Positions 3,082 to 32,620 of a stretch of DNA of 64,000 nucleotides are shown here, in pieces. This DNA comes from an uncultured Candidatus Saccharibacteria bacterium (GTDB lineage Bacteria > Patescibacteriota > Dojkabacteria > SC72 > JAFGCJ01). Position 1 is the stretch's first letter, and every line of letters begins with the position of its first letter. The position numbers were made by a program, and so were the translations under genes. The stretch covers positions 15,110-79,109 of the forward strand of contig CAZDUZ010000001.1 in NCBI GenBank assembly GCA_964508755.1, written 5' to 3'. The notes beneath the pieces were generated by a model. That model was not told the origin of the DNA. It did not search any database and saw only the letters and a list, made by a program, of their open reading frames with translations.

Positions 3082-6000
3082 GTGAATAGTCTTGGGCAGG
3101 ATGTTCCAACTTCCTTTGTTGAAGGTTCTATAAAGACAAATGATCGCCTGAAGGCATCGTTTTCACGGTCCAATAATCCTTCTCTAAGCGTCAAGCAAAA
3201 AATTAAGAAGATCATCGAATCGAGGAGGGTAGGTAAAGCACTCCTTGGTTTTTCTTTATTTATTTTCGTCCTTACGCTCGTCTATTCTTATTGGGTTTAC
3301 CAGTCATATCCTTGGTCTGAACCGTATGATATCCGGGTTACAAATGTAACCGGTCGTTCTGCGACGATAAGTTGGGTAACGGATGAAGCTGTCTCGGGTG
3401 TTGTGTCATATAGCACCTCTGATTCCTTTCTTCCGGGGGTGCTTTCACGTTTGACAGGCAGTGTTGCTTTTGATGATAGAGACATTCAGAAAGAGTTGGA
3501 AAAGAAAGCTAAAGAGGCTGTAAACACGGTTATTTCTGGAAGTGATTCTGCAACTTATGAGTATGATGTGACTTCCCAAATGACTCTTAAAGATACCGGG
3601 GCCTTTTATGTTCATCATGTGACAATCAGCAATTTAGAACCTGATACGTCGTATTATTTCCAGGTGGGTAATGGGCTACGTTTTATCAGTCCTTCTGAAG
3701 ATATTGTGGACTACACTGTGGGAAAGGGTAATTCCTTCAATACCTTTGAAGATTTGGATTCTATTCAGACACCAAGCCCGAGTTACGGTGCTGTATTGCA
3801 GGAAACTGGGGAGGTCGTTGTTGATGGATTGGTATTTATGGAAATCGAAGGCAAAAATTCATCTCCCGTATCCACAACTCTTAGTGAAAACGGTACGTGG
3901 TACATAGATTTATCAAACATCAGAAATAGTACTGGAGATGCATTTGTACGTACGGTCGAAGATAATGATTTCGAGAAGGTTTGGATTGAAGCTGGTCCTT
4001 CAGGGCGTGTTTCAACAAGTATCCCAATGACTCTTGACGCACCTGCAGAGGATATCTTTATTCCGTCTGGGGGGAGTCGCAGTGAAGAAGTATATGAATC
4101 TTCATTCGTAAGTTTTATTCGAAAGCTTACCCCACCTGTTCAAGCTGCATCTTGCTTGTGTGAATGTGAAGGTAATCAGAGTGACGGCTACAAAAGTCGT
4201 TGGTGTGGGAGGACACAGGAGCGCATTGCGAAGCAACAATTTGACGATGGATGCTACTGGATAGATGAAGGTTGTAATGCCGTTGCAACCGATCCAGCAA
4301 CTTGTAACAAGTATCAAACCTTTCCTGTCAAAGGAGACAGAATTGGAAACACCTGTGAAGGTGGTCAGGATTCTACTTCCACAGCTCCTCCAACTGGAAC
4401 AACCCCAACTGATACACCAAATGATACTCCTAGTTCTCCTCTGCCACAAGAATCTGCAGACGCCACGAGAGGTTCATGTGGTGGTAGGGCTCATGGATCG
4501 TGTGGTCCAAGTTCACTTGCGTGTTTATCCAAAGCACCTCCTGAGGATTGTTTTTGGGCAATTTGTGACGATGGAGCGTGGAAAAGAATTGAACCAAATA
4601 CTTGCCCTGAGAGTAACGTTGCATCAGATACAGAAGGGAGTGGGGATAGTACAACACCCTCAGGTTCTCAGGCACCTGGTCTTGCTTGTAGAGAGAGGAA
4701 CAGTAGTTGGGTACTTTGCACGAGTCTTCGAGAAGATGAAAGGAGAATTGTATATCGTGATAGTTTAGGGGCTGGTTCTAATGATTGCTGTGTGAAAATT
4801 AATCAACCTGTTGATACGAGCGGAACAACAGATGTCTGTTTTGACCGCTATTATCTTTCCATCTCTTGTGAAAGTGATGAAGCAGACAAAGATAATGTTA
4901 TTGGACTATCAGATCCAAACAACCCCTCTTCATATAAGTGCTGCGGTTTCAAAGCATCGACTCCAGATGATTTAGAAGAATTAAGAAGATCGGAAGCTGA
5001 GAGAGATGAAAGTTTTGCCCAATCGAGGGATGAGCTCTGTCGAAAAGAATTTGATGAAAACACAGTGTCTGAATATAACTCTAGTGCTGATCGAGGAGCG
5101 TCTCGGGGTAATATTTTTCCAGCTGATGGTGGTATTGTAACCTGTTTTTTCAAGATTGGTGTTGTCTCACGCCCTCCTGACATGCAAACCTGTGGGGAGC
5201 AGGGAGAAGGGTATGTATCTTTTTCGGAAGGAAACCAAACCTGCAGTGAGGTAGTTGACGGTATTCGTGATTTCAAAGGTCAATCTTGTTGTAAAAGTTG
5301 CGATAAAGTGAATCCAACACCTCCCGGGTGTACCAGTGTAACCTTAGCTCAAGCTCAAGTTCCTGAAGTAAACCTCATACAACTTTTACAAAATAGTATT
5401 TCTTGTTTTTTCAATTTTCACAAAGTCGCTTACTGTGGAGGAAATCCTTGTAATAACCAGTGTGGATGTACCTGTAAACGATCAGGTGCTGGAGAATGTG
5501 AAACTGACGGTGTAGTTGTAGGACCAGGAGAATTATGTCCAGGAATAAAGCAAAGCAAAATTCCTGAAACGTATACAAAGGAATTTTCATCTTTGTCTCA
5601 ATCTCTTTCCAGTAAAGTTCAGGCTGAATTTGAAGAAAACACAAATGATAAAGAAAACATACTTCTTATCTCTCCTGAAAACGGCATCTTTTCATTTAAT
5701 GAAAAAGGAATATATTGCACGATCATAAATGAAGTTCCCTACTGCTTTGAAATTAATGAAACTGGACCGAAGAGGCTCTATATTGATCGGAATGGTGATA
5801 ATACATTTGACAATGCTGATATTGATCTTGGTTCTCAGGTATTTGAATTAGAGGTTACTCAAGAAGATGAAGTCGATATCTATAACATTGAGCTTGGTTT
5901 TAACTTCATGTCTTTTAGAATTGTGGGAGGAACCGGAGAGGATACTCTTGCATCTACGTTTCTAGAAAACCTGAACAGCCAATATGACAATGCATTCTTC

Positions 6001-8894: not shown

Positions 8895-9605
8895 TTGCGA
8901 AATTTCAAAATGACGGTAAATGATGAACAGAGTGAGTTTCGAATTGCTTCTGAAAACGAAGCTCTCCGTAAACTACAGGATTGGATGAGTAGATGTGATA
9001 AAAACGAAGGGCCCTCGGTATGTTTTGAAGTTGGTCGTGCCGTGGGTGAGTCGATTGTATCGTTAGGTGAATTTAGAATCGAAGGAGATCTGTCTGAACC
9101 GTGGTGGACTGCACGAAGTTATTTACAAACTATCGAAAATGATATTGTGCCTTCTCTTCTTCATAACGAAGCAGATCTGATGCTTCATAGGCAGTTTGTT
9201 GAAGGTGTTTTGGCGGTCTTTTCTGAAAATGGCGTACCTCAAAGGGTAACGGTGGCTGAGCGGAGAAGAGTGGAACAACCTGTTGATACCCGATGGGTAC
9301 ATACCCAGGCTATGCAATACCGAATCGTTCAAGCTCGCGGGTTTGCAACTGCTCCTACTGTTGAATATGGTGTGGCGGGTGGATATATTCCAGAATTGTT
9401 AGAATTACTAGGGAGTTTTAAGCGTAATCCAGGGATTTCTCGCGAAAGTATTGATACCGTTCGAGAACAACTTGCGCTTGCAAGGGAATACGGACAGAAA
9501 GCGCTTCTTGATGATCGGAACGTTGTTTCCTTCTCCCGGGGAATCGTTGGAGCAGTACACGCATTAAATGTGCGGAAGTTTGGTTATGTTGCAGCTAATA
9601 TCTAA
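8895..9605 (+). CDS. Hypothetical protein (236 aa; more probable ATG start at 8910)
   Basis: Long ORF. The track start is TTG, and the in-frame ATG at 8910 (MTVNDEQ...) is the more plausible start. No motif recognised. Confidence 0.5.
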   Translation: MRNFKMTVNDEQSEFRIASENEALRKLQDWMSRCDKNEGPSVCFEVGRAVGESIVSLGEFRIEGDLSEPWWTARSYLQTIENDIVPSLLHNEADLMLHRQFVEGVLAVFSENGVPQRVTVAERRRVEQPVDTRWVHTQAMQYRIVQARGFATAPTVEYGVAGGYIPELLELLGSFKRNPGISRESIDTVREQLALAREYGQKALLDDRNVVSFSRGIVGAVHALNVRKFGYVAANI

Positions 9606-9610
9606 GCCTT

Positions 9611-10249
9611 TTGTTTATGAGTCCTTTAGTTCCAGGAAACATTCGAGATACTGATTTGTGGGTATATGCTTCTTCAAACGCTCCTGATGAGGAACCTATA
9701 GAAAAGCGTGCAGAAGAGGCCGGACTATCATTAACGGAGGCTCTGTTTGTTTTAGGAGAAAGATCATTTTCTGATGGTTTTCTATTAGAGGAGAGTAAAA
9801 GACGTATGGAATGTTGGGAAATTGAATGGCGGGATATCACCCTTAATGATGCCTATATCCGAGGACTTATGGTTGATGGAATTGAAAGAGGGGTATTAAG
9901 AGTATATCCTGACATGCGGTACTACTATGATAGCTCTGAGTGGGTGTCGGCGGTCAGTGCTACCTTTGAAAAACTACGAAACGAGTTTATAAGTTCTCCA
10001 TACTTCTTTGCCTCACGATTAGGACAAGGACTAGGGAGGTCATTGTTTCAAAAAGGTCGATTAACTCAGAGCGAGGAATCAGAAAGAGCTGTTCACATGA
10101 TGCAAGTAGAACAGTACTTGTGTATGTACTATCGGTTGTTAGAGTATGTCGTGGGAGATGACGATTTGGAGGAAATGTTTGTCTTTGGCTTTTGGACGGA
10201 GATTGATGAACTGCTAGCGTTAAGTTCCGGATGTCATGCCCAGGAATAA
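9611..10249 (+). CDS. Hypothetical protein (212 aa), probably co-transcribed with the preceding gene
   Basis: Starts 5 nt after the stop of 8895-9605. No motif recognised. Confidence 0.5.
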   Translation: MFMSPLVPGNIRDTDLWVYASSNAPDEEPIEKRAEEAGLSLTEALFVLGERSFSDGFLLEESKRRMECWEIEWRDITLNDAYIRGLMVDGIERGVLRVYPDMRYYYDSSEWVSAVSATFEKLRNEFISSPYFFASRLGQGLGRSLFQKGRLTQSEESERAVHMMQVEQYLCMYYRLLEYVVGDDDLEEMFVFGFWTEIDELLALSSGCHAQE

Positions 10250-10338
10250 CCGATTTTTCTTTGCCTGTTTATTGAACATTTTTTCCGACAGGGACATTGG
10301 CACGTGCGTGCTGCTCAATGTCCCCGTCGGGTGGGGGA

Positions 10339-10440
10339 TCAGACGGAGTAATCTTTATCCAAGATTTGGATGAAGGTATATCCGACGAACATGAGTGTGA
10401 GTATCCCCACGACCGCCCCCGCGATCTTCAGCGCCTTCAT
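10339..10440 (-). CDS. Small membrane peptide (33 aa, MKALKIAGAVVGILTLMFVGYTFIQILDKDYSV) with a perfect Shine-Dalgarno; not in the ORF track
   Basis: Minus strand reads AAAGGAGGTGATCAC-ATG (SD 7 nt upstream), then a 33-codon ORF containing a single TM helix. Locally GC-rich codons. Confidence 0.55.
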   Translation of the reverse strand: MKALKIAGAVVGILTLMFVGYTFIQILDKDYSV

Positions 10441-10552
10441 GTGATCACCTCCTTTCGGCACAGAATCGTTGAGCGGCATTCTACTATGGGTTTCGTATGT
10501 GTGTAAATATTGTTATGACGTGGCTTTTATTGCTACTCCGTTCAATCATTTC

Positions 10553-10581
10553 TTTACAACTTCTCATTCTCTCTCTATAAT
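10553..10581 (+). promoter_or_regulatory. Sigma-70-like promoter (-35 TTTACA, 17-nt spacer, -10 TATAAT) driving the leuS leader
   Basis: TTTACA at 10553-10558 and TATAAT at 10576-10581. The predicted TSS falls at about 10588-10589, only 2-3 nt before the leader-peptide ATG, implying a leaderless transcript. Confidence 0.5.
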
Positions 10582-10590
10582 TCCCCCTGT

Positions 10591-10641
10591 ATGACAACCA
10601 GTACATTTTACAGCTTGCTCAGCCTACTACTAGCCCAGTAA
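10591..10641 (+). CDS. Leu-rich leader peptide (MTTSTFYSLLSLLLAQ, 16 aa) of a leuS attenuator
   Basis: ATG at 10591 and stop TAA at 10639-10641. Five Leu in 16 aa, including three consecutive CTA codons. It lies between the promoter and the terminator hairpin. Confidence 0.5.
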   Translation: MTTSTFYSLLSLLLAQ

Positions 10642-10675
10642 ACGGGAGGCTTCTAGCTGTAAGAGTATTGCTATG

Positions 10676-10700
10676 AACCTCCTGAGAAGGAGGTTTTTTG
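10676..10700 (+). terminator. Intrinsic terminator / attenuator hairpin in the leuS 5' leader
   Basis: AACCTCCT-GAGA-AGGAGGTT is a perfect 8-bp stem with a tetraloop, followed by TTTTTTG. The upstream GGAGG at 10645-10649 can pair with the CCTCC of the 5' arm, giving a candidate antiterminator. Confidence 0.55.
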
Positions 10701-10744
10701 TTATCATAGGGCTGTCTGTGAGATGTGGAGAGTTCATCCATCTC

Positions 10745-13204
10745 ATGATGAAATTTTATTTTAAATTAGAACTAACCGTGACACCATACAACCCGAAATC
10801 ATTCGAAAAAAAATGGCAGGATACATGGTATTCCTCTGATGTGTACCATGCTGATGATTTTTCTAAGAAACCCAAATATTATATTCTCAGTGAGTTTCCC
10901 TATACTTCTGGAGATGGGGTGCATATTGGACACTGCAAGACCTATACCATGACCGATGTCATGGCTCGTCATGCCCGTATGAAAGGGAAAAACGTCTTGT
11001 ACCCCATGGGATGGGACGCATTCGGACTCCCAACCGAGAATTATGCAATAAAGACGAAGATTAATCCGAAAATTATAACCAAAGAGAACGTCGCAAATTT
11101 CAAGAGACAAATGCAGATGATGGGATGGTCTTTTGACTGGAGCAGAGAAATTGATACAACACAGCCCGAATATTATAAGTGGACCCAATGGATTTTCTTG
11201 AAGCTTTTTGAGAAAGGTCTTGCATACAAAGAAGAGATGCCGATTAACTGGTGTCCGAAATGCAAAACCGGTCTCGCAAACGAAGAGGTGGTAAACGGAA
11301 AACATGAGCGATGCGGAAGCGGGGTAACAACTAAGAAATTGAATCAATGGATGCTCAAAATTACTGCATATGCAGATCGATTAGCAGATGAACTTGAGGG
11401 TCTTGATTATTCGGAAAGTATTGTCGCAGCTGAGAGAAACTGGATTGGAAGGAAAGAATGGATTGATATCACGTACCCGATTGATGGTTCTGATGAGTCA
11501 ATTATCGTTTCTACCACAAGACCCGATACAAACTTTGGTGCAACCTTTGTCGTATTAGCACCAGAACATCCGGTCTTGAGCAAGGAAAAAGGACTTGTAC
11601 CAGAGCAATATCGTCAATCCGTGGATGAATATATTAGTAAAGCATTGAGTAAGACAGAGGAAGAACGTATTGCGGAAGGTCGAGAAAAAACGGGAGCTTT
11701 TACTGGGATGTATTGTATTAATAGGCTTAACGGAGAGAAACTTCCAATGTATGTTACTGATTTTGTACTCATGACTGTTGGTACCGGTGCAGTAGTTGGT
11801 GTTCCCGGACATGATAAACGTGACTTCGAATTTGCTCAGAAATTCAATCTTCCAGTTGTTCGTGTGGTACGAGGAAAAGATGGAGACGAATCAGACATTA
11901 CTTCTATTGATCAGGTGCAGGAAGAAGAGGGAACGATTATGAATTCAGATTTTCTAAATAATCTGGATATTCACGATGCTACTACAAAAGTGATGGACTA
12001 TTTGGAGGAGAAGGGGTGGGGGAAACGAGTAATTCGGTATCATCTTCGTGATTGGTTGTTTTCACGTCAGCATTACTGGGGTGAACCAATTCCTATCATT
12101 CATTGTGAAAAATGTGGTGCCGTACCAGTTCCCGAAGAGGATTTGCCGGTAGAACTTCCTGATGTCGTTTCGTATGAACCGACAGATACGGGAGAATCAC
12201 CCCTTGCTTCTATTACTGAATGGGTTAACGTGAAGTGCCCGGAATGTGGAGGCGAAGCGAAACGTGAAACTGACACTATGCCTAACTGGGCTGGATCAAG
12301 TTGGTATTACTTGCGTTTCTGTGACCCACATTGTGAAACAGGTATAGCAGACAAGAAAAAACTAGAGTACTGGATGCCGGTCGATTTTTATGATGGAGGA
12401 GCTGAGCATGTAACGCTTCATCTATTATATTCACGATTCTGGCACAAATTTCTTAATGATATTGGTGTGGCTCCCGGAATAGAACCATACAAATCGCGTA
12501 GAAATCACGGGATGCTTCTTGGGGAAGGTGGAACAAAAATGTCGAAATCACTTGGAAACGTCATTAATCCTGATGATTTGGTAGAGCAGTTTGGAACTGA
12601 TGTCGTACGGCTCTACCTAATGTTTGTAGGACCCTATGAAGGTACGAGCGAGTGGAGTGAGCGTGCAATTCAAGGAGTAGACCGCTTCGTGAAGAGATTT
12701 TGGGAGTTTCTTACCCAAAATCTTGAAAATCCAGCAGATTCCTGTGATGAGGATGTGGAGAAAGCAGTTTCCGTTCTTGTTAAAACGATTGACCGCAATA
12801 TACCATCAAGGAGATTCAACACATCGGTTGCAAGCATTATGGAGTTTTACAATAAGACGAAAGACAAGACATTATGTAAGGAGTGTCTTTCGTCGGTTCT
12901 TATTGCGATCGCTCCTTTCATGCCGCATCTTTCTGAAGAATTGTGGAATACCATGGGACATAAAGATTCTATTCATAAAGAGCAGTGGCCTAAGGTTAAG
13001 GAGGTTGCCCGAGATGCCATGGTTGAGATTCCTGTTCAGATAAATGGAAAGATCAGATCGAAAATTACCATACCTGCATCAGCTGTTGAGAAGGCAGTGC
13101 TCGCTGTTGCTCTTGAAGATGAAAAAGTTCAGAAGAACCTTGCAGGCAACGATCCTAAAAAAGCTATCTATGTTCCTGGAAAGATTCTTACCATAGTCGT
13201 ATAA
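10745..13204 (+). CDS. leuS: Leucyl-tRNA synthetase
   Basis: HIGH motif (DGVHIGHCKTY) and KMSKS motif (TKMSKSLGNV). The editing-domain region and anticodon-binding C-terminus are of LeuRS type. The ORF-track start at 10673 would translate the terminator hairpin, so the ATG at 10745 (MMKFYF...) is preferred. Confidence 0.9.
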   Translation: MMKFYFKLELTVTPYNPKSFEKKWQDTWYSSDVYHADDFSKKPKYYILSEFPYTSGDGVHIGHCKTYTMTDVMARHARMKGKNVLYPMGWDAFGLPTENYAIKTKINPKIITKENVANFKRQMQMMGWSFDWSREIDTTQPEYYKWTQWIFLKLFEKGLAYKEEMPINWCPKCKTGLANEEVVNGKHERCGSGVTTKKLNQWMLKITAYADRLADELEGLDYSESIVAAERNWIGRKEWIDITYPIDGSDESIIVSTTRPDTNFGATFVVLAPEHPVLSKEKGLVPEQYRQSVDEYISKALSKTEEERIAEGREKTGAFTGMYCINRLNGEKLPMYVTDFVLMTVGTGAVVGVPGHDKRDFEFAQKFNLPVVRVVRGKDGDESDITSIDQVQEEEGTIMNSDFLNNLDIHDATTKVMDYLEEKGWGKRVIRYHLRDWLFSRQHYWGEPIPIIHCEKCGAVPVPEEDLPVELPDVVSYEPTDTGESPLASITEWVNVKCPECGGEAKRETDTMPNWAGSSWYYLRFCDPHCETGIADKKKLEYWMPVDFYDGGAEHVTLHLLYSRFWHKFLNDIGVAPGIEPYKSRRNHGMLLGEGGTKMSKSLGNVINPDDLVEQFGTDVVRLYLMFVGPYEGTSEWSERAIQGVDRFVKRFWEFLTQNLENPADSCDEDVEKAVSVLVKTIDRNIPSRRFNTSVASIMEFYNKTKDKTLCKECLSSVLIAIAPFMPHLSEELWNTMGHKDSIHKEQWPKVKEVARDAMVEIPVQINGKIRSKITIPASAVEKAVLAVALEDEKVQKNLAGNDPKKAIYVPGKILTIVV

Positions 13205-13267
13205 GAAACTTGTAATGATAGGAAAATCTATGGAATTATGATCATAGCTCCACACCTTTGGTGACTT

Positions 13268-13276
13268 TGCTATAAT
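13268..13276 (+). promoter_or_regulatory. Candidate extended -10 promoter element (TGcTATAAT) upstream of the cyclophilin gene
   Basis: Perfect TATAAT preceded by a TGn motif, 34 nt upstream of the start codon. There is no good -35. Confidence 0.3.
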
Positions 13277-13309
13277 AAAGTTCGAAGATAATCTGTAAAT
13301 TGATTAACA

Positions 13310-14182
13310 ATGGGCGCATTGAATCCAGGAGACTTAATGAAAGACCACAAGGGAGTACTGGTGCCACTTGCTTTGGTTCTAGTAATCGTGCTTGGTATTG
13401 GTGCCTTTTTCGGTGAAGGTGGAGACTATCTTTCTTCCGGCGGTATTGAAAGTGAGAAAAATGAGCAGGAAGAAATTAATGAATCGAAGGAAACCTATTC
13501 ATCTGCTCCCTCAATGCAAATAGATGAAGACGATGATTATATTGCCGTCATTGAAACAAATTTCGGTACGATAGAAGTCGATCTCTTAGAAAAAAACGCT
13601 CCGAAAACAGTAAACAATTTTGTGTTTCTTGCAGAAGATGGGTTCTACGACAACCTTACGTTTCATCGAGTTGTAGAGGGTTTTGTCATTCAAGGGGGTG
13701 ATCCCAAAGGTGATGGAACGGGAAATCCTGGCTATGCATTTGGTGATGAGATCAATCCAGATTCAATCGGTTTAGATACGATATTGGTAAAGCAGGCTGA
13801 TTTTCTTGCAGGTCTATACAGTACATGGAATGCTGCAACAATGGCCTACGCCCCGAATAATCTTCGTGAGCATGCAAATGATACGTTGGCAGACTTTTAT
13901 GAGAATGAGGTTGGATATGATTATGATTATAGTATAAATAGTGTCCGGTTTGCTCCTGGGGTATTAGCTATGGCGAATTCGGGTCCAAATACAAATGGCT
14001 CGCAGTTTTTCATTACCGTCGGAAATTCTGAACCAAGTCAGTTAAATGGGAGACATACCGTATTTGGAAAAGTACTCGATGGAATGGATGTTGTGGATGA
14101 AATAGCTGAAGTTCCCGTGGACAGAAATCAAAAGCCTATTGATACTGTACGTATTGAGTCTATTACCATTGAGAAACGGTAA
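13310..14182 (+). CDS. Cyclophilin-type peptidyl-prolyl cis-trans isomerase with N-terminal membrane anchor and acidic linker
   Basis: [30 protein letters not shown] and GSQFFITV are cyclophilin signature blocks. N-terminal hydrophobic helix [19 protein letters not shown]. Confidence 0.85.
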
Positions 14183-14189
14183 TGCTTCA

Positions 14190-14519
14190 TTAGTCCGCTA
14201 AGGGCATTGGAATGGTAGACAATTCGAGAAGGAGTTCTTCATTATCGTTTTCAGCTTTTCGTACTCTGAATTGATGACTGCATTCTGTGCACTGATATGC
14301 AATTTGTGTATTTCCATTACGAACAAGTAGGCCAACGGGTTTCATGAGACCGTGACACTGAGCGCGCCGATCTCCCGGGTAAATGTCGACATGCTTGGAA
14401 TAGAGACATTGAGGACAATGGTCGGTATAACCGTCACCTTCAATCGAAAATCCACAGTTTTCACAAGCAAATGACTCGATCGTACGTTGAAATTTTTTAG
14501 AAGGGAGTGGCAAATCCAT
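14190..14519 (-). CDS. Zinc-ribbon protein (Cys-rich, possibly RNHCP-like)
   Basis: Two CxxC pairs (CENCG ... HCPQC) and CTECSH. Overlaps the stop of the upstream gene by 1 nt, suggesting an operon. Confidence 0.5.
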   Translation of the reverse strand: MDLPLPSKKFQRTIESFACENCGFSIEGDGYTDHCPQCLYSKHVDIYPGDRRAQCHGLMKPVGLLVRNGNTQIAYQCTECSHQFRVRKAENDNEELLLELSTIPMPLAD

Positions 14520-18129: not shown

Positions 18130-18288
18130 GGGGTGAAACTGCAATATCGATAGAATTTCTTTGTACTATTATTACGTTACATTCCCTTCCTATGGTAAAA
18201 TAGCGCGTCGTACGAAAATATGCACTGGCTGTACTGTGAAAGGGTAGTTTGCTTGAGTTTTGGCTTACCTATTGCAAGCTCTTCGTAT

Positions 18289-18361
18289 GCACCTGTAGCT
18301 CAGTGGATAGAGCAACTGCCTTCTAAGCAGTAGGTCGTCGGTTCGAATCCGACCGGGTGCG
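18289..18361 (+). tRNA. tRNA-Arg (anticodon TCT)
   Basis: Cloverleaf: acceptor GCACCTG/CGGGTGC, anticodon stem ACTGC/GCAGT, loop CTTCTAA, T-loop TTCGAAT. Confidence 0.8.
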
Positions 18362-18424
18362 TATGTAAAAAAGGCCTGCTGAATACGGAGTATGTATTGT
18401 TCGTGAGATGCTCAAGTTGCATGT

Positions 18425-18497
18425 GCATCCATAGCTCAACGGATAGAGCACTGGTTTGCGGAACCAGAGGTTAGAGGTTCGAATCCTCTTGGATGCG
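18425..18497 (+). tRNA. tRNA-Arg (anticodon GCG)
   Basis: Close overall resemblance to E. coli tRNA-Arg(ACG), but the anticodon loop is TTGCGGA (stem CTGGT/ACCAG). The ACG isoacceptor is replaced by GCG. Confidence 0.7.
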
Positions 18498-18547
18498 TTT
18501 TTTGATAAACAGTTTCTATCAGAATATTAACGGAGAATGTTGTATTA

Positions 18548-18621
<74 letters not shown>

Positions 18622-18684: not shown

Positions 18685-18940
18685 GATAACGAGTAGAGAA
18701 GTAACTTTCGAATGCTGATTCAGCAACCGGGGATGTTGGAAGCCCGGCAGCTGCGGGAGTGAACGCACTGCTTGTTTGTTTACTAATTTGGATAACACCT
18801 GAAATTGAGTGTGTTATCACAAGAGTGTGTCGTCTGGATTCTTTTTACCATTCAGATGGCAAATTCGGGTGGTACCGCGGGAAGAAGTAGAAAGCTCCCG
18901 TCCCGTTGTCAAATTGTGGCGATGGGGCGGGAGCTTTTTG
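18685..18940 (+). promoter_or_regulatory. T-box riboswitch leader (Arg-specific; specifier CGC) with terminator, upstream of argS
   Basis: AAATTCGGGTGGTACCGCGG at 18861-18880 matches the T-box consensus AATTAGGGTGGTACCGCGG at 18 of 19 positions. AGAGA (K-turn) motif at 18694. Candidate specifier loop GTGAA-CGC-A at 18759-18767. Terminator AGCTCCCGTCCC...GGGGCGGGAGCT plus T-run at 18885-18939. Confidence 0.7.
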
Positions 18941-19005: not shown

Positions 19006-21612
19006 ATGAAATTCAAGATTAGTCCTGAGTTATTAAGTAAGTATCCGACTGTCTGTGAGTACATAGTTGTTGCACGTGAAGTGAACAACGAGATTGCCGG
19101 TAAGTCTATTGTGGATAGAATGTCTGTTGTGACGCATGAGATAAAGGAAAAAGGTAAGGAGTTGTTGAATAATGAACGGTATTCGCGATGGGAGCGTGTC
19201 TATGAAGAGATGGCTCGTACTGCTTCTTTGAAACCCTCTGATTTCCACGCGTCTCATGTAGCTTTGACAAAACGTGCTTTTTCTGGAAAAGGGCTACCTA
19301 ATATTAATCCTCTTGTCAATTTTTATAACATGTACTCTCTTAAATATGGAGTTCCCTTTGGTGGGGAGGATCTTTCCACTGTATACGGAGATCTTATTCT
19401 TACTGTATCTAAGGGTGGTGACCTTTATAAGGGTATTGGAGAAAGCATTGTCGAAAAGACAAACGCAGGAGAGGTGACTTGGAAAGATGATTACTCAGTA
19501 ACCTGTAGACTGTGGAATTGGAGGCAAAGTGACCGGACGAAAATTACACGAAACAGCAAGGATATTTATTTCATTATTGATGGATTTACAGACCTTCCTG
19601 ATGTCGAGTATGAGAAATTAGTCACTGATTTTTGCCATGAAGTCCAAACGGTATTTGGTGCAAAAGTTGAGTACGGGAAGATCTCCGCGGAATCACCTGA
19701 GTTTGAAGTGAATTATGTTACAAAAAGTGTTTCTGGTATCGATGCAGAGACAGAAATGTCTTCCAAAAGTGCGTCAGGAAAAGCTAAGAATAAAAACACT
19801 GATAAAACAAAGAAAATTCTACAAAGAAAGGCTGCAATGCTGGGATTAAAAGATGGGAGTCATCTTTCAGAGAGAGTCACAGCCATTGTAGATGAAATTA
19901 TTGGGGAACATAATGGTGGTGGATCATCCACCCTGTCATTGTCGCAAAACTCTCCGTTTGGTGATTTTTCAACGACTCTCGCACTGAAGCGTGCATCTGT
20001 ATTGAAAAAATCTCCACAAGAAATTGCTCAGGAAATGGTACAAAAACTGGTATCAGATCCAAAAGGACAGTCGCTTTTTTCGAGTGTAAGTGCGGCACCG
20101 AATGGATTCATTAATCTTACCTTGTTAGATTCAGTACTTGTTGATGAGTTGGTTTCTGCATACAGAAAAAAAGATAGCTTTGGCAACTCTGAAGTAGGGG
20201 AAAACCGGACAATTCTAATTGAAAGTCCTTCCATTAATCCAAATGCCGCCGCGCATATCGGCCATCTTTTAAATCTTTTTATCGGTAGGGCGTTGGGAAG
20301 GTTATTTACGAAGGTTGGATTTGATGTCAAGGTCGATAACCTCATTAATGATCGTGGGATTAAGATTTGTATGGCAATGTGGGGGGTAGCTAATCTCTCA
20401 GAGTCTAGTAATCCTACTGAGGCTGGTTTAAAGCCAGATCAATTTGTCGGGTTATCGTATGTGAAGGCAAAACAGCTTTATAATGAGGATTCTTCAGTGA
20501 AAGAAGAGATTCAGCAGATGCTTCGGGATTGGGAGGAAGGCAAACCTGAGGTGATGGAACTTTGGAAAAAGGTCGTCGGATGGGCCTATGAAGGACATAG
20601 ACTGACATTTGAAAGACTGGATGAGGTAGAGGGTCATCTTTGGCTTGAGAGCGAAATATACAAAGGCGGGAAAGATGTGATTCAGTCATATCTCGGTAAA
20701 GGAGTAATAGAAAAACTACCCGATGGCGCGGTTATTGGACGTTTAGAAGAAAAATATGGAATCCCTGATGTAATTCTTCTGAGGGCCGATGGGACAAGTT
20801 TGTATGAAACGCAGGATATCTACTTGACGATGTTGAAGGTGAAGAAATTCAATCCCTGGAAGGCTATATGGGTTGTCGGTAATGAGCAGATTGCACATTT
20901 TCAGAAGCTTTTCGCACTATTTGAAGCACTCGAAATACTGAACGTGGATAATTTGTATCATATGGGATACGGAATTGTTGTTGATAAAAAGGGAATCAAG
21001 ATAGGGAAAAATGCAGCCGATGCCACCGCAGATACCGTTCTCGATCAGATGCGAGACATGGCGTTGTCGATTATGAAAGAGCGAAAAATTAAAAGAACGT
21101 TGGAAGATGAAGGGGATATTGCTGAAGCTGTGGGACAGGGAGCCCTCAGGTATGCGTTTCTTTCAAAAGATCCCTTTCTTGGCACGGTGTACGATCCTGA
21201 GTCTGCTCTTTCATTTACTGGTAGAAGCGGGCCATATATTATGTATGCCTATACAAGAGCAAAAAACGTGCTAGGAAAGGTATATAAAGATACTGCTCAC
21301 GATGAGGGTAAAGAGGTAGACTCTCTCTTGAGTGAAGATATTTCTTTATCACCTGAAGAGAAATCGCTTGCTCTTTCTATACTGCAGTACCCGGAGATCA
21401 TTCTTTCTGCTGCTAATGCGTATGCTCCAAATGTTGTTGCAGAGTACTTGTACAAACTTGCAAGACAATTCAGCAATTTCTACGAAAAGATGCCTATTGC
21501 TTCGGCAGAAGGAAACGAACGCCATCTGAGAATTCTTCTTACATCTCTTACGAGTACGATTCTCAAGGATGGTTTATCAATCCTAGGAATAAGAACACTT
21601 GAGAATATGTAA
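19006..21612 (+). CDS. argS: Arginyl-tRNA synthetase with an N-terminal B3/4 (PheT-like) domain fusion (868 aa)
   Basis: aa ~1-230 (ISPELLSKYPTVCEYIVVAREVNNE ... ) resemble the B3/4 domain of COG3382/PheT beta. aa ~300-868 contain the ArgRS N-domain, the class I HIGH motif (NAAAHIGHLLN) and a DALR-like anticodon-binding region (GALRYAFLS), ending ...LENM. Confidence 0.8.
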   Translation: MKFKISPELLSKYPTVCEYIVVAREVNNEIAGKSIVDRMSVVTHEIKEKGKELLNNERYSRWERVYEEMARTASLKPSDFHASHVALTKRAFSGKGLPNINPLVNFYNMYSLKYGVPFGGEDLSTVYGDLILTVSKGGDLYKGIGESIVEKTNAGEVTWKDDYSVTCRLWNWRQSDRTKITRNSKDIYFIIDGFTDLPDVEYEKLVTDFCHEVQTVFGAKVEYGKISAESPEFEVNYVTKSVSGIDAETEMSSKSASGKAKNKNTDKTKKILQRKAAMLGLKDGSHLSERVTAIVDEIIGEHNGGGSSTLSLSQNSPFGDFSTTLALKRASVLKKSPQEIAQEMVQKLVSDPKGQSLFSSVSAAPNGFINLTLLDSVLVDELVSAYRKKDSFGNSEVGENRTILIESPSINPNAAAHIGHLLNLFIGRALGRLFTKVGFDVKVDNLINDRGIKICMAMWGVANLSESSNPTEAGLKPDQFVGLSYVKAKQLYNEDSSVKEEIQQMLRDWEEGKPEVMELWKKVVGWAYEGHRLTFERLDEVEGHLWLESEIYKGGKDVIQSYLGKGVIEKLPDGAVIGRLEEKYGIPDVILLRADGTSLYETQDIYLTMLKVKKFNPWKAIWVVGNEQIAHFQKLFALFEALEILNVDNLYHMGYGIVVDKKGIKIGKNAADATADTVLDQMRDMALSIMKERKIKRTLEDEGDIAEAVGQGALRYAFLSKDPFLGTVYDPESALSFTGRSGPYIMYAYTRAKNVLGKVYKDTAHDEGKEVDSLLSEDISLSPEEKSLALSILQYPEIILSAANAYAPNVVAEYLYKLARQFSNFYEKMPIASAEGNERHLRILLTSLTSTILKDGLSILGIRTLENM

Positions 21613-22947: not shown

Positions 22948-24262
22948 TAGGTTCATACAAAGCATTCGTCTCTTCCTTCTAATTTCTTCCTTACATGTAA
23001 TTATTAGACACTTGCTGTTTGGTGGGTGAATTACAATAATGTCGTTTTGGAGGGTTTATGTCAGCGTTCTGGCAGTGGTAGTGGTCGCATGCTATGTTAA
23101 GTGTTTATCCTCATTAATGCAAAGCTTGTTAAAGAATGAGTGGAAATGATTTATTGATGCAGTGTAGGGAGTTGCGTTCTCTCGTGTTTGAGGTGGGGCA
23201 AATTTTGTATTTCTGTTTGAGGTTTCGGGTGTTGAGTAGGATAAGAGGATGTGGATGGCCTTTGAAAAAAATAGATCTGTAGAATAGGTGTCCTACTATA
23301 GGTTTTATTCTTACGGATCACGCTCCTTGGGAAGTATATATTCTTGTTCTCAATGTCAGATGATGATGGAAGAAAGAGTCATCGTTTCATTTGAATCACG
23401 AAATGATTTCCCGACGGGTGGCAGGTCGAAGAGATGAGCTTGTATAGTTTTGAACTCAGAATTCTGTCATCGCTCCATCGAGAGTGATTATTTTTTAGTG
23501 GAGGTCATGATTTGAGGTAAAACGGGTAACTTACTCTTGAGATTGCAAGATGTTGTGTTCGGTGATGGGTAAGACCCAGGGGACGTCTGGAAGATTTGTT
23601 TACGGCGGTGGAGGTAATAGAGCTTGTATTTTTACAGAGGAATGTGTCTTCAACGTTCTACGATGTTGTGGGTTACTTTCGTCTTAATTGCTCATCTTGC
23701 GATTGGTATGGTTGGCTTACTGTGTGGTGAAGGTTTACCTTCATAAGTATAAATTCTAGATTTGAGTTGAGACCTATAGGGTGTGGGTGGGAAAACGGCT
23801 TACGTCACTTTGTTCATATTCTATGATTTCTTTACATTAAAACAATAATTGTTAGTTTGACGGGTGGGGTGGGTGATGGGTTTTATGAAGTGACGTTATA
23901 AGGTTCTAATAAAACCATTCATTAGAAGGGATTGTTTTGATGGATATTGAAAATAGTAATCGGTCTCGCTCCGATAGAAACACTACAGGTCCGTGTTCAG
24001 GGCTCACGACTTTACGTACGACTGTCTGTAATTAAGTAGGGGTGCTGTAATAAGAATTGTGGTGGGTAAAAAATGTAAACGATATTGTGTTTTTTGTCAG
24101 AAAATTAGTGAGAATGGTCAAACGAATTGAAAAGTGATTTATAGAAGATGATGATGTGTAGAATAATAATATAGGTTTGAAATATGTGTGAAGAATTCTA
24201 TTATTTTCTGTTCATTTCTATAGGTGGTTGCTTAACGGAGTAAGAATCTTTACAATGGAATT
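22948..24262. other. 1.3-kb ORF-free, GT-skewed region (no ORF of 60 aa or more in six frames) containing G-quadruplex motifs. Candidate large ncRNA or remnant element.
   Basis: The ORF track is empty here, which is unique in this window. Plus-strand composition is dominated by G and T with very few C. GGGTGGGGTGGGTGATGGG lies at 23862-23880. GTTTGAGGT is repeated. It lies between the tRNA-Pro 3' end and the Lon-like gene. Confidence 0.5.
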
Positions 24263-31618: not shown

Positions 31619-32620
31619 ATGCTGACAAAAAGAATTGGAATAGATTTAGGGACGGCTAACTCAGTTGTCTTCATCGATAAGCAGGGTGTGGTGCTTGTGG
31701 AGCCAACTGTTGTTGCTCTTAATGCCGACGATTATTCTGTTGTGGCTGTTGGAAGTGAGGCAAAAGCAATGCTTGGGAAGACACCTGAGCATGTTATTGC
31801 CTGCAGACCGCTTAGAAGCGGAGTAATCGCAAGTTACAGAGTTACTGAGGCCTTGCTCAAATATTTCATCAATAAGGTTGTTGGTTTTTCACGTCTTTTC
31901 CGTCCAGAAGTCATGATTAGCGTTCCTGCCGGAATTACCTCTGTAGAGCAGCGTGCGGTAAAGAAAGCTGCATTAGCGGCGGGAGCAGGTAAGGTATGGC
32001 TAATCCCCGAACCTCTTGCAGCAGCAATTGGTGCCGGTCTACCTATACATACCTCTGCAGGAAATATGATCGTAAACATGGGAGGTGGAACAGCTGAGGT
32101 AGCAATAATCTCATTAAACGGTATGGTGGTGTGGAATTCGGTGCGAGTTGCCGGTGATGCGCTTAATGACTCAATTATCTCATACTTAAGAAGAAAACAT
32201 GGTCTTCTTATCGGTGAGCAAACGGCTGAGGATATAAAGCTAAAAATTGGTACCGCTCTTCCGTTAGATAAGGAAGAATCAATGGAAGTACGAGGGAGAG
32301 ATAATTCGAGTGGTCTACCACGGTCCATTACCGTTACTTCAAACGAAACAGCTGAAGCCATGAAAAAACCATTAAATGGCATTATTGCTGCAGTAAAACA
32401 GGTTCTTGAGCAAACTCCTCCTGAATTATCATCAGATGTCATTGATCGGGGAATGGTCTTGAGTGGAGGGACTTCTTTGCTAAGAAATATTGATGGACTA
32501 CTTACAAAAGCAACCGGTGTTCCATCATACGTCGCCGATGATGCTTTGTTTTGTGTCGTCAGAGGTACGGGTGAAGCTCTGAAAAATCTGGACGTATTGC
32601 AACGAAGCTTGGGGACTTGA
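31619..32620 (+). CDS. mreB: MreB/Mbl-family actin-like protein (paralog 1)
   Basis: IGIDLGTANSVVF phosphate-1 motif, LIPEPLAAAIGAGL, MIVNMGGGTAEVAIISL and other MreB blocks along the full length. Confidence 0.85.
   Translation: MLTKRIGIDLGTANSVVFIDKQGVVLVEPTVVALNADDYSVVAVGSEAKAMLGKTPEHVIACRPLRSGVIASYRVTEALLKYFINKVVGFSRLFRPEVMISVPAGITSVEQRAVKKAALAAGAGKVWLIPEPLAAAIGAGLPIHTSAGNMIVNMGGGTAEVAIISLNGMVVWNSVRVAGDALNDSIISYLRRKHGLLIGEQTAEDIKLKIGTALPLDKEESMEVRGRDNSSGLPRSITVTSNETAEAMKKPLNGIIAAVKQVLEQTPPELSSDVIDRGMVLSGGTSLLRNIDGLLTKATGVPSYVADDALFCVVRGTGEALKNLDVLQRSLGT

Follow-up and report, generated by a model that had tools for sequence, protein, structure and literature searches.

The DNA analysed here (hereafter the window) is a 64,000-nucleotide (nt) stretch of contig CAZDUZ010000001.1 from an uncultured bacterium of the Dojkabacteria lineage, and the element under study is the region immediately 5' of its leucyl-tRNA synthetase (LeuRS) gene, leuS (10778–13204, plus strand). 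From position 10553 onwards we found, in this order, a promoter-like site, a short open reading frame (ORF) with a run of leucine codons, a GGGAGG segment and an intrinsic terminator whose 5' arm can alternatively pair with that segment. We consider it highly likely that this module is a ribosome-mediated (leader-peptide) transcription attenuator that makes leuS transcription depend on how much charged tRNA-Leu is available. The initial annotation, made from the window alone, had proposed the same type of control, and this proposal is now supported by the conservation of the Leu run and hairpin, by a covarying antiterminator and by a switch between folds when a ribosome is modelled on the window RNA.

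The promoter-like site P1 consists of a TTTACA -35 hexamer (10553–10558, plus strand) and a TATAAT -10 hexamer (10576–10581, plus strand) separated by a 17-nt spacer; with 11 of 12 consensus positions matched it was the best such site within 9500–14500, and the sigma-70-like promoter described in the initial annotation was read directly at 10553–10581. Its -10 hexamer ends 9 nt ahead of an ATG at 10591. Transcription likely starts at the purine G10589, which would give a 2-nt leader, and the predicted 5' untranslated region (UTR) is approximately 2–3 nt long. No Shine-Dalgarno (SD) sequence was found upstream of ATG 10591, as the -10 box fills that space, and translation would therefore begin on a 5' UTR of about 2–3 nt. 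The leader-peptide ORF (10591–10641, plus strand; predicted to be near-leaderless) encodes MTTSTFYSLLSLLLAQ and ends with a UAA stop. Its codons are ATG ACA ACC AGT ACA TTT TAC AGC TTG CTC AGC CTA CTA CTA GCC CAG TAA, in agreement with the previously noted 16-codon ORF with five Leu and three consecutive CUA codons, and the peptide contains the motif S-L-L-S-L-L-L. The putative regulatory codons are CUA CUA CUA at 10624–10632 (plus strand), the other Leu codons being UUG at 10615 and CUC at 10618. CUA is a minor Leu codon, accounting for 10.6% of Leu codons in the long ORFs of the window.

Downstream of the stop codon, GGGAGG (10644–10649) forms the core of segment 2. In the minimum-energy folds it is sequestered in a segment 1:2 hairpin (10599–10670, plus strand) that forms when no ribosome is present and that possibly acts as an RNA polymerase pause site. 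The antiterminator (segment 2:3; 10643–10684, plus strand) pairs CGGGAGG (10643–10649) with CCUCCUG (10678–10684), plus extensions, at -18.8 kcal/mol. The intrinsic terminator hairpin (segment 3:4; 10675–10696, plus strand), GAACCUCCU-GAGA-AGGAGGUUU, has an energy of -13.0 kcal/mol and is directly followed by UUUGUU; its U-tract UUUUUUGUU spans 10694–10702 on the plus strand, and TTTTTTGTT is kept in 7 of the 11 leaders compared below. The 5 kb scanned (9500–14500) held just one other terminator-like site. The earlier description of a hairpin with a U-run downstream of the peptide thus stood, the hairpin lying 33 nt past the stop, while its description as an 8-bp, GC-rich stem did not: there are nine pairs, four of which are G-C. 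The end of the element was also moved, from 10745, which is merely a candidate ATG, to near 10702.

Two further features were noted between the terminator and leuS. Just after the U-tract, the motif TGTTATCAT occurs in the window and in L168, TGGTATAAT in L165 and TGTTATAGT in L163 (L numbers denote the leuS loci compared), and from its sequence the window carries here a tentative extended -10-like element, TG-T-TATCAT (10699–10707, plus strand), as a possible second, constitutive promoter, P2. A hairpin of the form GAGAUG-N13-CAUCUC (10720–10744, plus strand) abuts ATG ATG at 10745–10750, before GTG 10778; it showed no conservation among relatives and no role was assigned to it.

The start of leuS itself required correction. 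An 843-aa ORF can be read from ATG 10673, a start that falls within the terminator, and the initial annotation had already called this ORF-track start almost certainly wrong. The reading from GTG 10778 begins VTPYNPKSFEKKWQ, alignments with homologues open at its residues 1–4, the relative L161 (79% LeuRS identity) has an ATG exactly at the position of GTG 10778, and the closest homologues have a LeuRS of 808 aa. These alignments place the true start at GTG 10778 rather than at ATG 10673, and the longer ORF is, judged by the same sequences, an artefact. Over-extended LeuRS gene calls of 819–835 aa were also seen in several relatives, and the corrected start explains such N-terminally extended models from gene callers.

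The LeuRS of the window is nearest to those of Candidatus Dojkabacteria (Patescibacteria, also known as the candidate phyla radiation, CPR) metagenome-assembled genomes (MAGs). Its best identity was about 60% in GTDB genomes and reached 79% in a large protein collection. In GTDB genomes and JGI metagenomes, where the best matches were at this ~60% level, the module was missing from most loci; the closer relatives (63–79%) were obtained through a protein search followed by contig look-ups. The comparison set was made up of nine leuS loci, those of the closest homologues for which DNA was available, with P0001 (79% identity) left outside the count. The module was found upstream of leuS in eight of these nine (L161–L165 and L167–L169; LeuRS 63–79% identical), in L019, a Dojkabacteria MAG, and in L037, a distant Patescibacteria-like MAG that is labelled Gammaproteobacteria and yet has a LeuRS nearest to Patescibacteria loci. 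The Leu run and hairpin, whose conservation had been suggested earlier as a test of the attenuator, therefore recur in eight of the nine closest loci as well as in L019 and L037, giving 11 leaders when the window is included.

The order of the shared module is constant: -10 box, ATG, Leu-run ORF, stop codon, GGGAGG, CCUCC/GGAGG terminator, leuS. Most of the ten leaders besides that of the window (not L019 and L037) have a -35 element, TTGACA or TTTACA, at the corresponding position, and TATAAT is found 17 nt past it in the ten leaders of the Dojkabacteria clade, with TAAAAT in L037. The -10 box lies 9–10 nt from the ATG in all 11 leaders, and every ORF has 14–18 codons with an in-frame L-x-L-L-L run. 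The distance from the ATG to the Leu run is 24, 30, 33 or 36 nt, a multiple of 3 every time. The stop codon lies 1–7 nt from the GGAGG core of segment 2 (11/11), and a spacer of 22–39 nt leads to (A/G)CCUCC(C), a loop, GGAGGUU and a U-tract; the terminator is followed by leuS after 45–170 nt across the loci that bear the module. The leader peptides read MTTSTFYSLLSLLLAQ in the window, MTARKNYSPLSLLLAL in L161, MMARQIHSLFSLLLAQ in L162, MTEIRTLSHLLGLLLSL in L163, MITTNSFNSLFGLLLLS in L164, MEDSKSCNSLLNLLLSAI in L165, MIKPVFRNNLLSLLLR in L167, MKEIKTCNNLSLLLRIF in L168, MIDTAGIAKLGLLLLRS in L169, MVIRKHTKQLSLLLR in L019 and MTHFVLLALLLANA in L037. Only the Leu run is conserved among them and the N-terminal part varies, while changes within the run are synonymous only (CUA CUA CUA, CUU CUC CUU, CUC CUC CUA, CUC CUC CUU). 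Genes 5' of the module differ between loci and include an ABC transporter, purple-acid-phosphatase-like proteins, a methyltransferase and others; the order of leuS and the cyclophilin gene downstream of it is constant.

A chance co-occurrence of a promoter-like site, a short ORF and a hairpin was considered at this point, since loose promoter matches (at least 9/12) are about as frequent as expected (14 found versus 11.4 expected from shuffled sequence). That the module recurs at ten other loci, with its order and spacings retained, speaks against chance, as does the fold of the leader RNA (z = -3.8, see below). A pattern scan was also run over 1.21 Mb (the window and 169 loci, both strands) for a -10-like box, 8–10 nt, an ATG, an ORF of 8–32 codons in which 4 or more of 6 residues are identical, and a terminator with a perfect stem. 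Just 11 sites matched, every one of them Leu-rich and directly 5' of leuS; the window contributed a single one, and there were no further matches. Chance is effectively refuted by the comparative data. Several candidates were discarded along the way. A second pattern match within the window, at 23353 (MSDDDGRKSHRFI with a weak hairpin), lacks an amino-acid run and was put down to chance. In L013 a short ORF rich in Leu, MERYISLQNSYLLNLLP, is accompanied by a hairpin that overlaps the stop codon; it showed no clear terminator/antiterminator pair and was not counted. Matches in L032 and L107 came from Bacillaceae-type loci and were judged to be chance, and the match in L127 is truncated, its “upstream” region thus not being truly upstream.

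Conservation of the alternative pairings was assessed on constructs of fixed length, each anchored at the helix cores; the MAFFT alignment misregistered segment 2 in L168, L163 and L037. The 2:3 pairing is possible in all 11 leaders with compensatory changes, as would be expected from the antiterminator originally drawn between GGAGG and the terminator 5' arm. In these constructs the 2:3 helix was 84.5% paired, with 7 of 10 pairs changed on both sides; none of 500 shuffles attained the observed values, and slid controls were 34–57% paired. The 3:4 terminator helix was 92.9% paired. C:G versus U:A immediately 3' of GGAGG is an example of the flanking covariation, and in L037 GCGGGG/CCCCGC replaces GGGAGG/CCUCCC in both helices.

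We then considered how a ribosome on the leader ORF would affect these folds, modelling its footprint as masking up to 12 nt beyond the A site. The free leader RNA folds into the long 1:2 hairpin (10599–10670) and the terminator, a fold that beats all 200 shuffles (z = -3.8). With the ribosome masked at the second or third CUA of the window, the minimum-energy fold became the antiterminator (10643–10684, -18.8 kcal/mol); with the ribosome at the first CUA the terminator stayed (-18.9 kcal/mol), and with the ribosome at the stop codon GGGAGG was covered and the terminator returned. The alternative pairings that had been proposed as a folding check were hence obtained in the window, a stall at the last Leu codon giving the antiterminator and a ribosome at the stop codon the terminator. 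L019 and L165 showed the same stall/stop switch, and L168 and L037 did so with the ribosome at one or more of the stall positions, so that roughly half of the other leaders switch. Energies for the 2:3 helix formed co-transcriptionally were obtained on transcripts ending just ahead of the terminator 3' arm, and in the nine leaders with automated helix identification they ranged from -12.6 to -24.1 kcal/mol, compared with -11.1 to -15.4 kcal/mol for the terminators. In L164 and L167 the automated terminator-arm assignment was wrong, and their 2:3 helices (7 bp and 9 bp) were taken from the register table, the antiterminators being CGGGAGG:CCUCCCG in L164 and AGGGGGUUA:UAACCUCCU in L167.

Taken together, these elements suggest the following course of events. 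P1 would start a transcript 0–3 nt ahead of AUG 10591, and a ribosome would load without an SD. When Leu-tRNA is plentiful, the ribosome would pass the three CUA codons and reach UAA 10639, where its footprint would cover GGGAGG at 10644–10649; the hairpin at 10675–10696 would then form and transcription would terminate in the U-tract, yielding a transcript of ~110 nt. When charged tRNA-Leu is scarce, the ribosome would stall at 10624–10632 and leave GGGAGG free to pair with CCUCC of the terminator 5' arm as soon as this is made, so that no terminator forms and RNA polymerase would read through into leuS. On an untranslated leader, both the 1:2 hairpin and the terminator would form, and transcription would end. 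In this scheme the elements, their pairings and energies and their conservation are read from the sequences, and we infer from them the transcription start, the near-leaderless translation, the ribosome stalling and the response to leucine.

Several observations weigh against this attenuator. First, the module is missing in L166 and in approximately 13 other Dojkabacteria leuS loci (L001–L013), which have instead a short leader with a T-run and an TGTAAAAT promoter. Second, the GGAGG/CCUCC cores are almost invariant and our own choice of anchoring on these cores favours pairing, so that covariation is informative only where it involves the flanking pairs or the single distant locus, L037. Third, the two states of the window are nearly isoenergetic (-18.8 versus -18.9 kcal/mol), and in L161, L162, L163 and L169 the full-length minimum-energy fold is the terminator even under a stalled ribosome. 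The case for these four leaders rests on kinetics, as the 2:3 helix is able to form while segment 4 has yet to be transcribed. Fourth, the CUA codons of the window are unable to pair with GGGAGG, unlike the CUU CUC CUU of relatives, and the 1:2 helix is built differently; since the CUA run cannot pair as CUU CUC CUU does, it is the coded leucine that is kept and not an RNA motif. Fifth, a predicted 5' UTR of 2–3 nt is not strictly leaderless. Finally, the -10-like boxes at 10699–10707 and before GTG 10778 may provide attenuator-independent, basal transcription of leuS.

These last boxes also bear on another view of the locus, in which the short ORF and terminator are a separate unit, that is, a gene for a hydrophobic micro-protein or a small RNA of ~110 nt, with leuS transcribed from its own downstream promoter and the terminator serving as insulation. 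Extended -10-like motifs stand straight after the terminator in the window and in L161, L162, L163, L165 and L168, and resemble the T-run and TGTAAAAT promoter of the attenuator-less Dojkabacteria leuS genes; TAAATT is found 10 nt 5' of GTG 10778. In Sinorhizobium, RNAs derived from attenuators, and leader peptides as well, are reported to be capable of acting in trans (PMC6614838, PMC7298713). Conservation of the peptide is, however, confined to the Leu run, and the module always lies directly 5' of leuS despite its differing upstream neighbours. Moreover, a plain terminator has no use for a conserved, covarying and mutually exclusive pairing, and the position of the stop codon is always such that segment 2 would lie under a ribosome terminating there. 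On balance we regard a separate unit as unlikely.

The switch between terminator and antiterminator could in principle also be set by a factor other than the ribosome, such as uncharged tRNA-Leu in the manner of a T-box, or LeuRS binding to its own leader. The strong structure of the free leader is compatible with this, and the window does hold a T-box-like leader in front of the arginyl-tRNA synthetase gene argS, which scored 62.2 bits (E = 2.7e-13) against the Rfam T-box model (RF00230). This score is below the gathering score of 93, and a default Rfam search therefore missed it. The argS leader served as a positive control for the T-box search of the leuS leader, where no T-box or other meaningful leader match was found in 9800–11400 even at E <= 10, and no family reached its gathering score. 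The best leader match there, Phe_leader (RF01859; 19.7 bits versus a gathering score of 55, E = 2.8), is at chance level and driven by the terminator. In addition, the ~110-nt leader is too short for a Stem I and a T-box, and the fixed distance from the -10 box to the ATG, the kept frame and the synonymous-only changes of the Leu run all point to translation. Relatives do not share the sequence of the window's large hairpin; autoregulation by LeuRS through an anticodon-like loop, a variant that we had considered, was dropped as the apical sequence of this hairpin is not conserved. Control by a non-ribosome factor is, in our judgement, very unlikely.

Near-leaderless translation of the leader peptide would fit the initiation signals of the window as a whole. 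An SD-like sequence was found near a possible start in only about 10 of 44 long ORFs, while a TAnnnT box ending 6–10 nt before the start was found in 13 of 44, compared with 7.8% of all ATGs (p = 2e-5). These counts suggest that mRNAs with no leader, or almost none, are common in the genome of the window. Examples of a -10-like box close to a start are those at 31619 (TATAAT, 6 nt, ATG) and 47328 (TACAAT, 9 nt, ATG). leuS also has no SD, and its translation from the read-through transcript would therefore be SD-independent as well, which is the norm in the window. Upstream of the leader, a divergent 33-aa hydrophobic ORF, MKALKIAGAVVGILTLMFVGYTFIQILDKDYSV (10339–10440, minus strand), has a strong SD (AAAGGAGGTGATCAC-ATG), rare in the window, and a promoter-like site, TTTACA-18-TAGAAT, at 10507–10478.

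Leader-peptide control of a synthetase operon is established for pheM-pheST of Escherichia coli (Rfam Phe_leader, RF01859; cited in PMC1262725). The leuS leader resembles it in the proposed attenuation of an aminoacyl-tRNA synthetase (aaRS) operon through cognate codons; the E. coli leader peptide differs in having an SD and in sensing Phe rather than Leu. The leu leader of Salmonella (leuL) has a run of Leu codons that includes the rare CUA, followed by terminator/antiterminator structures. This enterobacterial leader (Rfam Leu_leader) shares the Leu-codon run with CUA and the terminator plus antiterminator with the window; unlike the window leader, it controls the biosynthesis genes leuABCD and is SD-dependent, and no Rfam match to it was found in the window leader. 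To our knowledge, leuABCD is not known from the organism of the window. The T-box riboswitch, the usual aaRS control in Firmicutes, likewise answers low charging of the cognate tRNA with antitermination and more synthetase; it differs in sensing uncharged tRNA directly by an RNA of 200–300 nt, and the leuS leader of the window shows no T-box features.

By analogy, the closest precedent is the leaderless LeuL2 leader of Streptomyces leuS. In Streptomyces lividans TK24, leaderless LeuL2 (MRAVRLLLSEPR, with a three-Leu run) precedes a hairpin and a U-stretch in front of leuS (PMC8079986), and leuS attenuators with classical terminator and antiterminator hairpins have been predicted in S. coelicolor and S. 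avermitilis (PMC1262725). Both leaders combine a short leaderless-type ORF carrying a three-Leu run with a hairpin and a U-stretch directly 5' of leuS. They belong to Actinobacteria and to Patescibacteria (Dojkabacteria), respectively, and no sequence similarity was detected between them. The window peptide is also longer than LeuL2 (16 aa, with S-L-L-S-L-L-L), its predicted 5' UTR is 2–3 nt rather than 0, and its helices are built from an SD-like GGGAGG and an anti-SD-like CCUCC, which might additionally interact with the ribosome. Leaderless leader peptides have also been described before aaRS genes in Deinococcus deserti (PMC4007540), and polycysteine upstream ORFs with a 5'-terminal AUG in mycobacteria (bioRxiv 10.1101/834739); these share with the window the 5'-terminal AUG and the short cognate-rich ORF before aaRS or amino-acid genes, in different lineages. 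For the candidate leader peptides of the Mycobacterium cys operon no obvious terminator was reported (PMC1262725), whereas the window leader has an explicit intrinsic one.

The surroundings of the argS leader and some of the compared loci gave further observations. The T-box-like leader lies at 18685–18940 (plus strand), contains AAAUUCGGGUGGUACCGCGGG followed by a terminator-like hairpin, and is preceded immediately by three tRNA-Arg genes (18288–18621); one genome thus appears, from sequence, to control argS by a T-box and leuS by a leader peptide. The argS ORF (19006–21612, plus strand; 868 aa) encodes an N-terminal B3_4 domain (residues 80–196, E = 3.2e-19) before the arginyl-tRNA synthetase domains. 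We take B3_4 to be typical of the beta subunits of phenylalanyl-tRNA synthetase, and, provided that the start of the ORF is correct, the fusion is unusual. In L002, L003, L004, L005 and L007, which are Dojkabacteria loci with no attenuator, GTTCCAC(A/G) motifs, sometimes repeated, were found 60–120 nt before leuS and just 5' of the T-run and TGTAAAAT promoter; their sequence and position suggest that they may be a protein-binding site. L164 holds, at 4464–4560 (plus strand) between leuS and the genes for tRNA-His (4713–4789) and histidyl-tRNA synthetase (hisS, 4892 onwards), a TATAAT, 9 nt, an ATG and the ORF MLNSMFNTVKLHHHHSHVFAGL*. Its His run, CAU CAU CAU CAC AGC CAC, forms part of the 5' arm of a hairpin (UCACAGCCA...UGGUCUGUGA) with UUUUUCGUUU just downstream, and by its layout the region looks like a near-leaderless His leader peptide before tRNA-His and hisS.

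We found no paper joining Patescibacteria with leader-peptide attenuation, and the leuS leader is very probably a known mechanism in a new group. With a textbook mechanism and a close precedent at leuS of Streptomyces, it should surprise specialists only modestly. Near-leaderless attenuation may conceivably be a general control of aaRS and tRNA genes in the Dojkabacteria clade and in some other Patescibacteria (Leu with leuS at 11 loci, His with tRNA-His and hisS in L164), a generalisation that we put forward only tentatively. If true, it would imply that CPR bacteria couple transcription and translation tightly and that they initiate efficiently, independently of an SD, at 5'-terminal AUGs. 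Dojkabacteria and Patescibacteria of this kind are thought to lack amino-acid biosynthesis, and gene regulation in Patescibacteria is, as far as we know, almost unexplored. Against this background the leuS leader is a well-supported and testable candidate for a cis-regulatory switch in Patescibacteria. It suggests that these organisms, with their reduced genomes, would monitor the charging of tRNA-Leu and adjust LeuRS to match, and that transcription is coupled with the translation of near-leaderless mRNAs in these bacteria.

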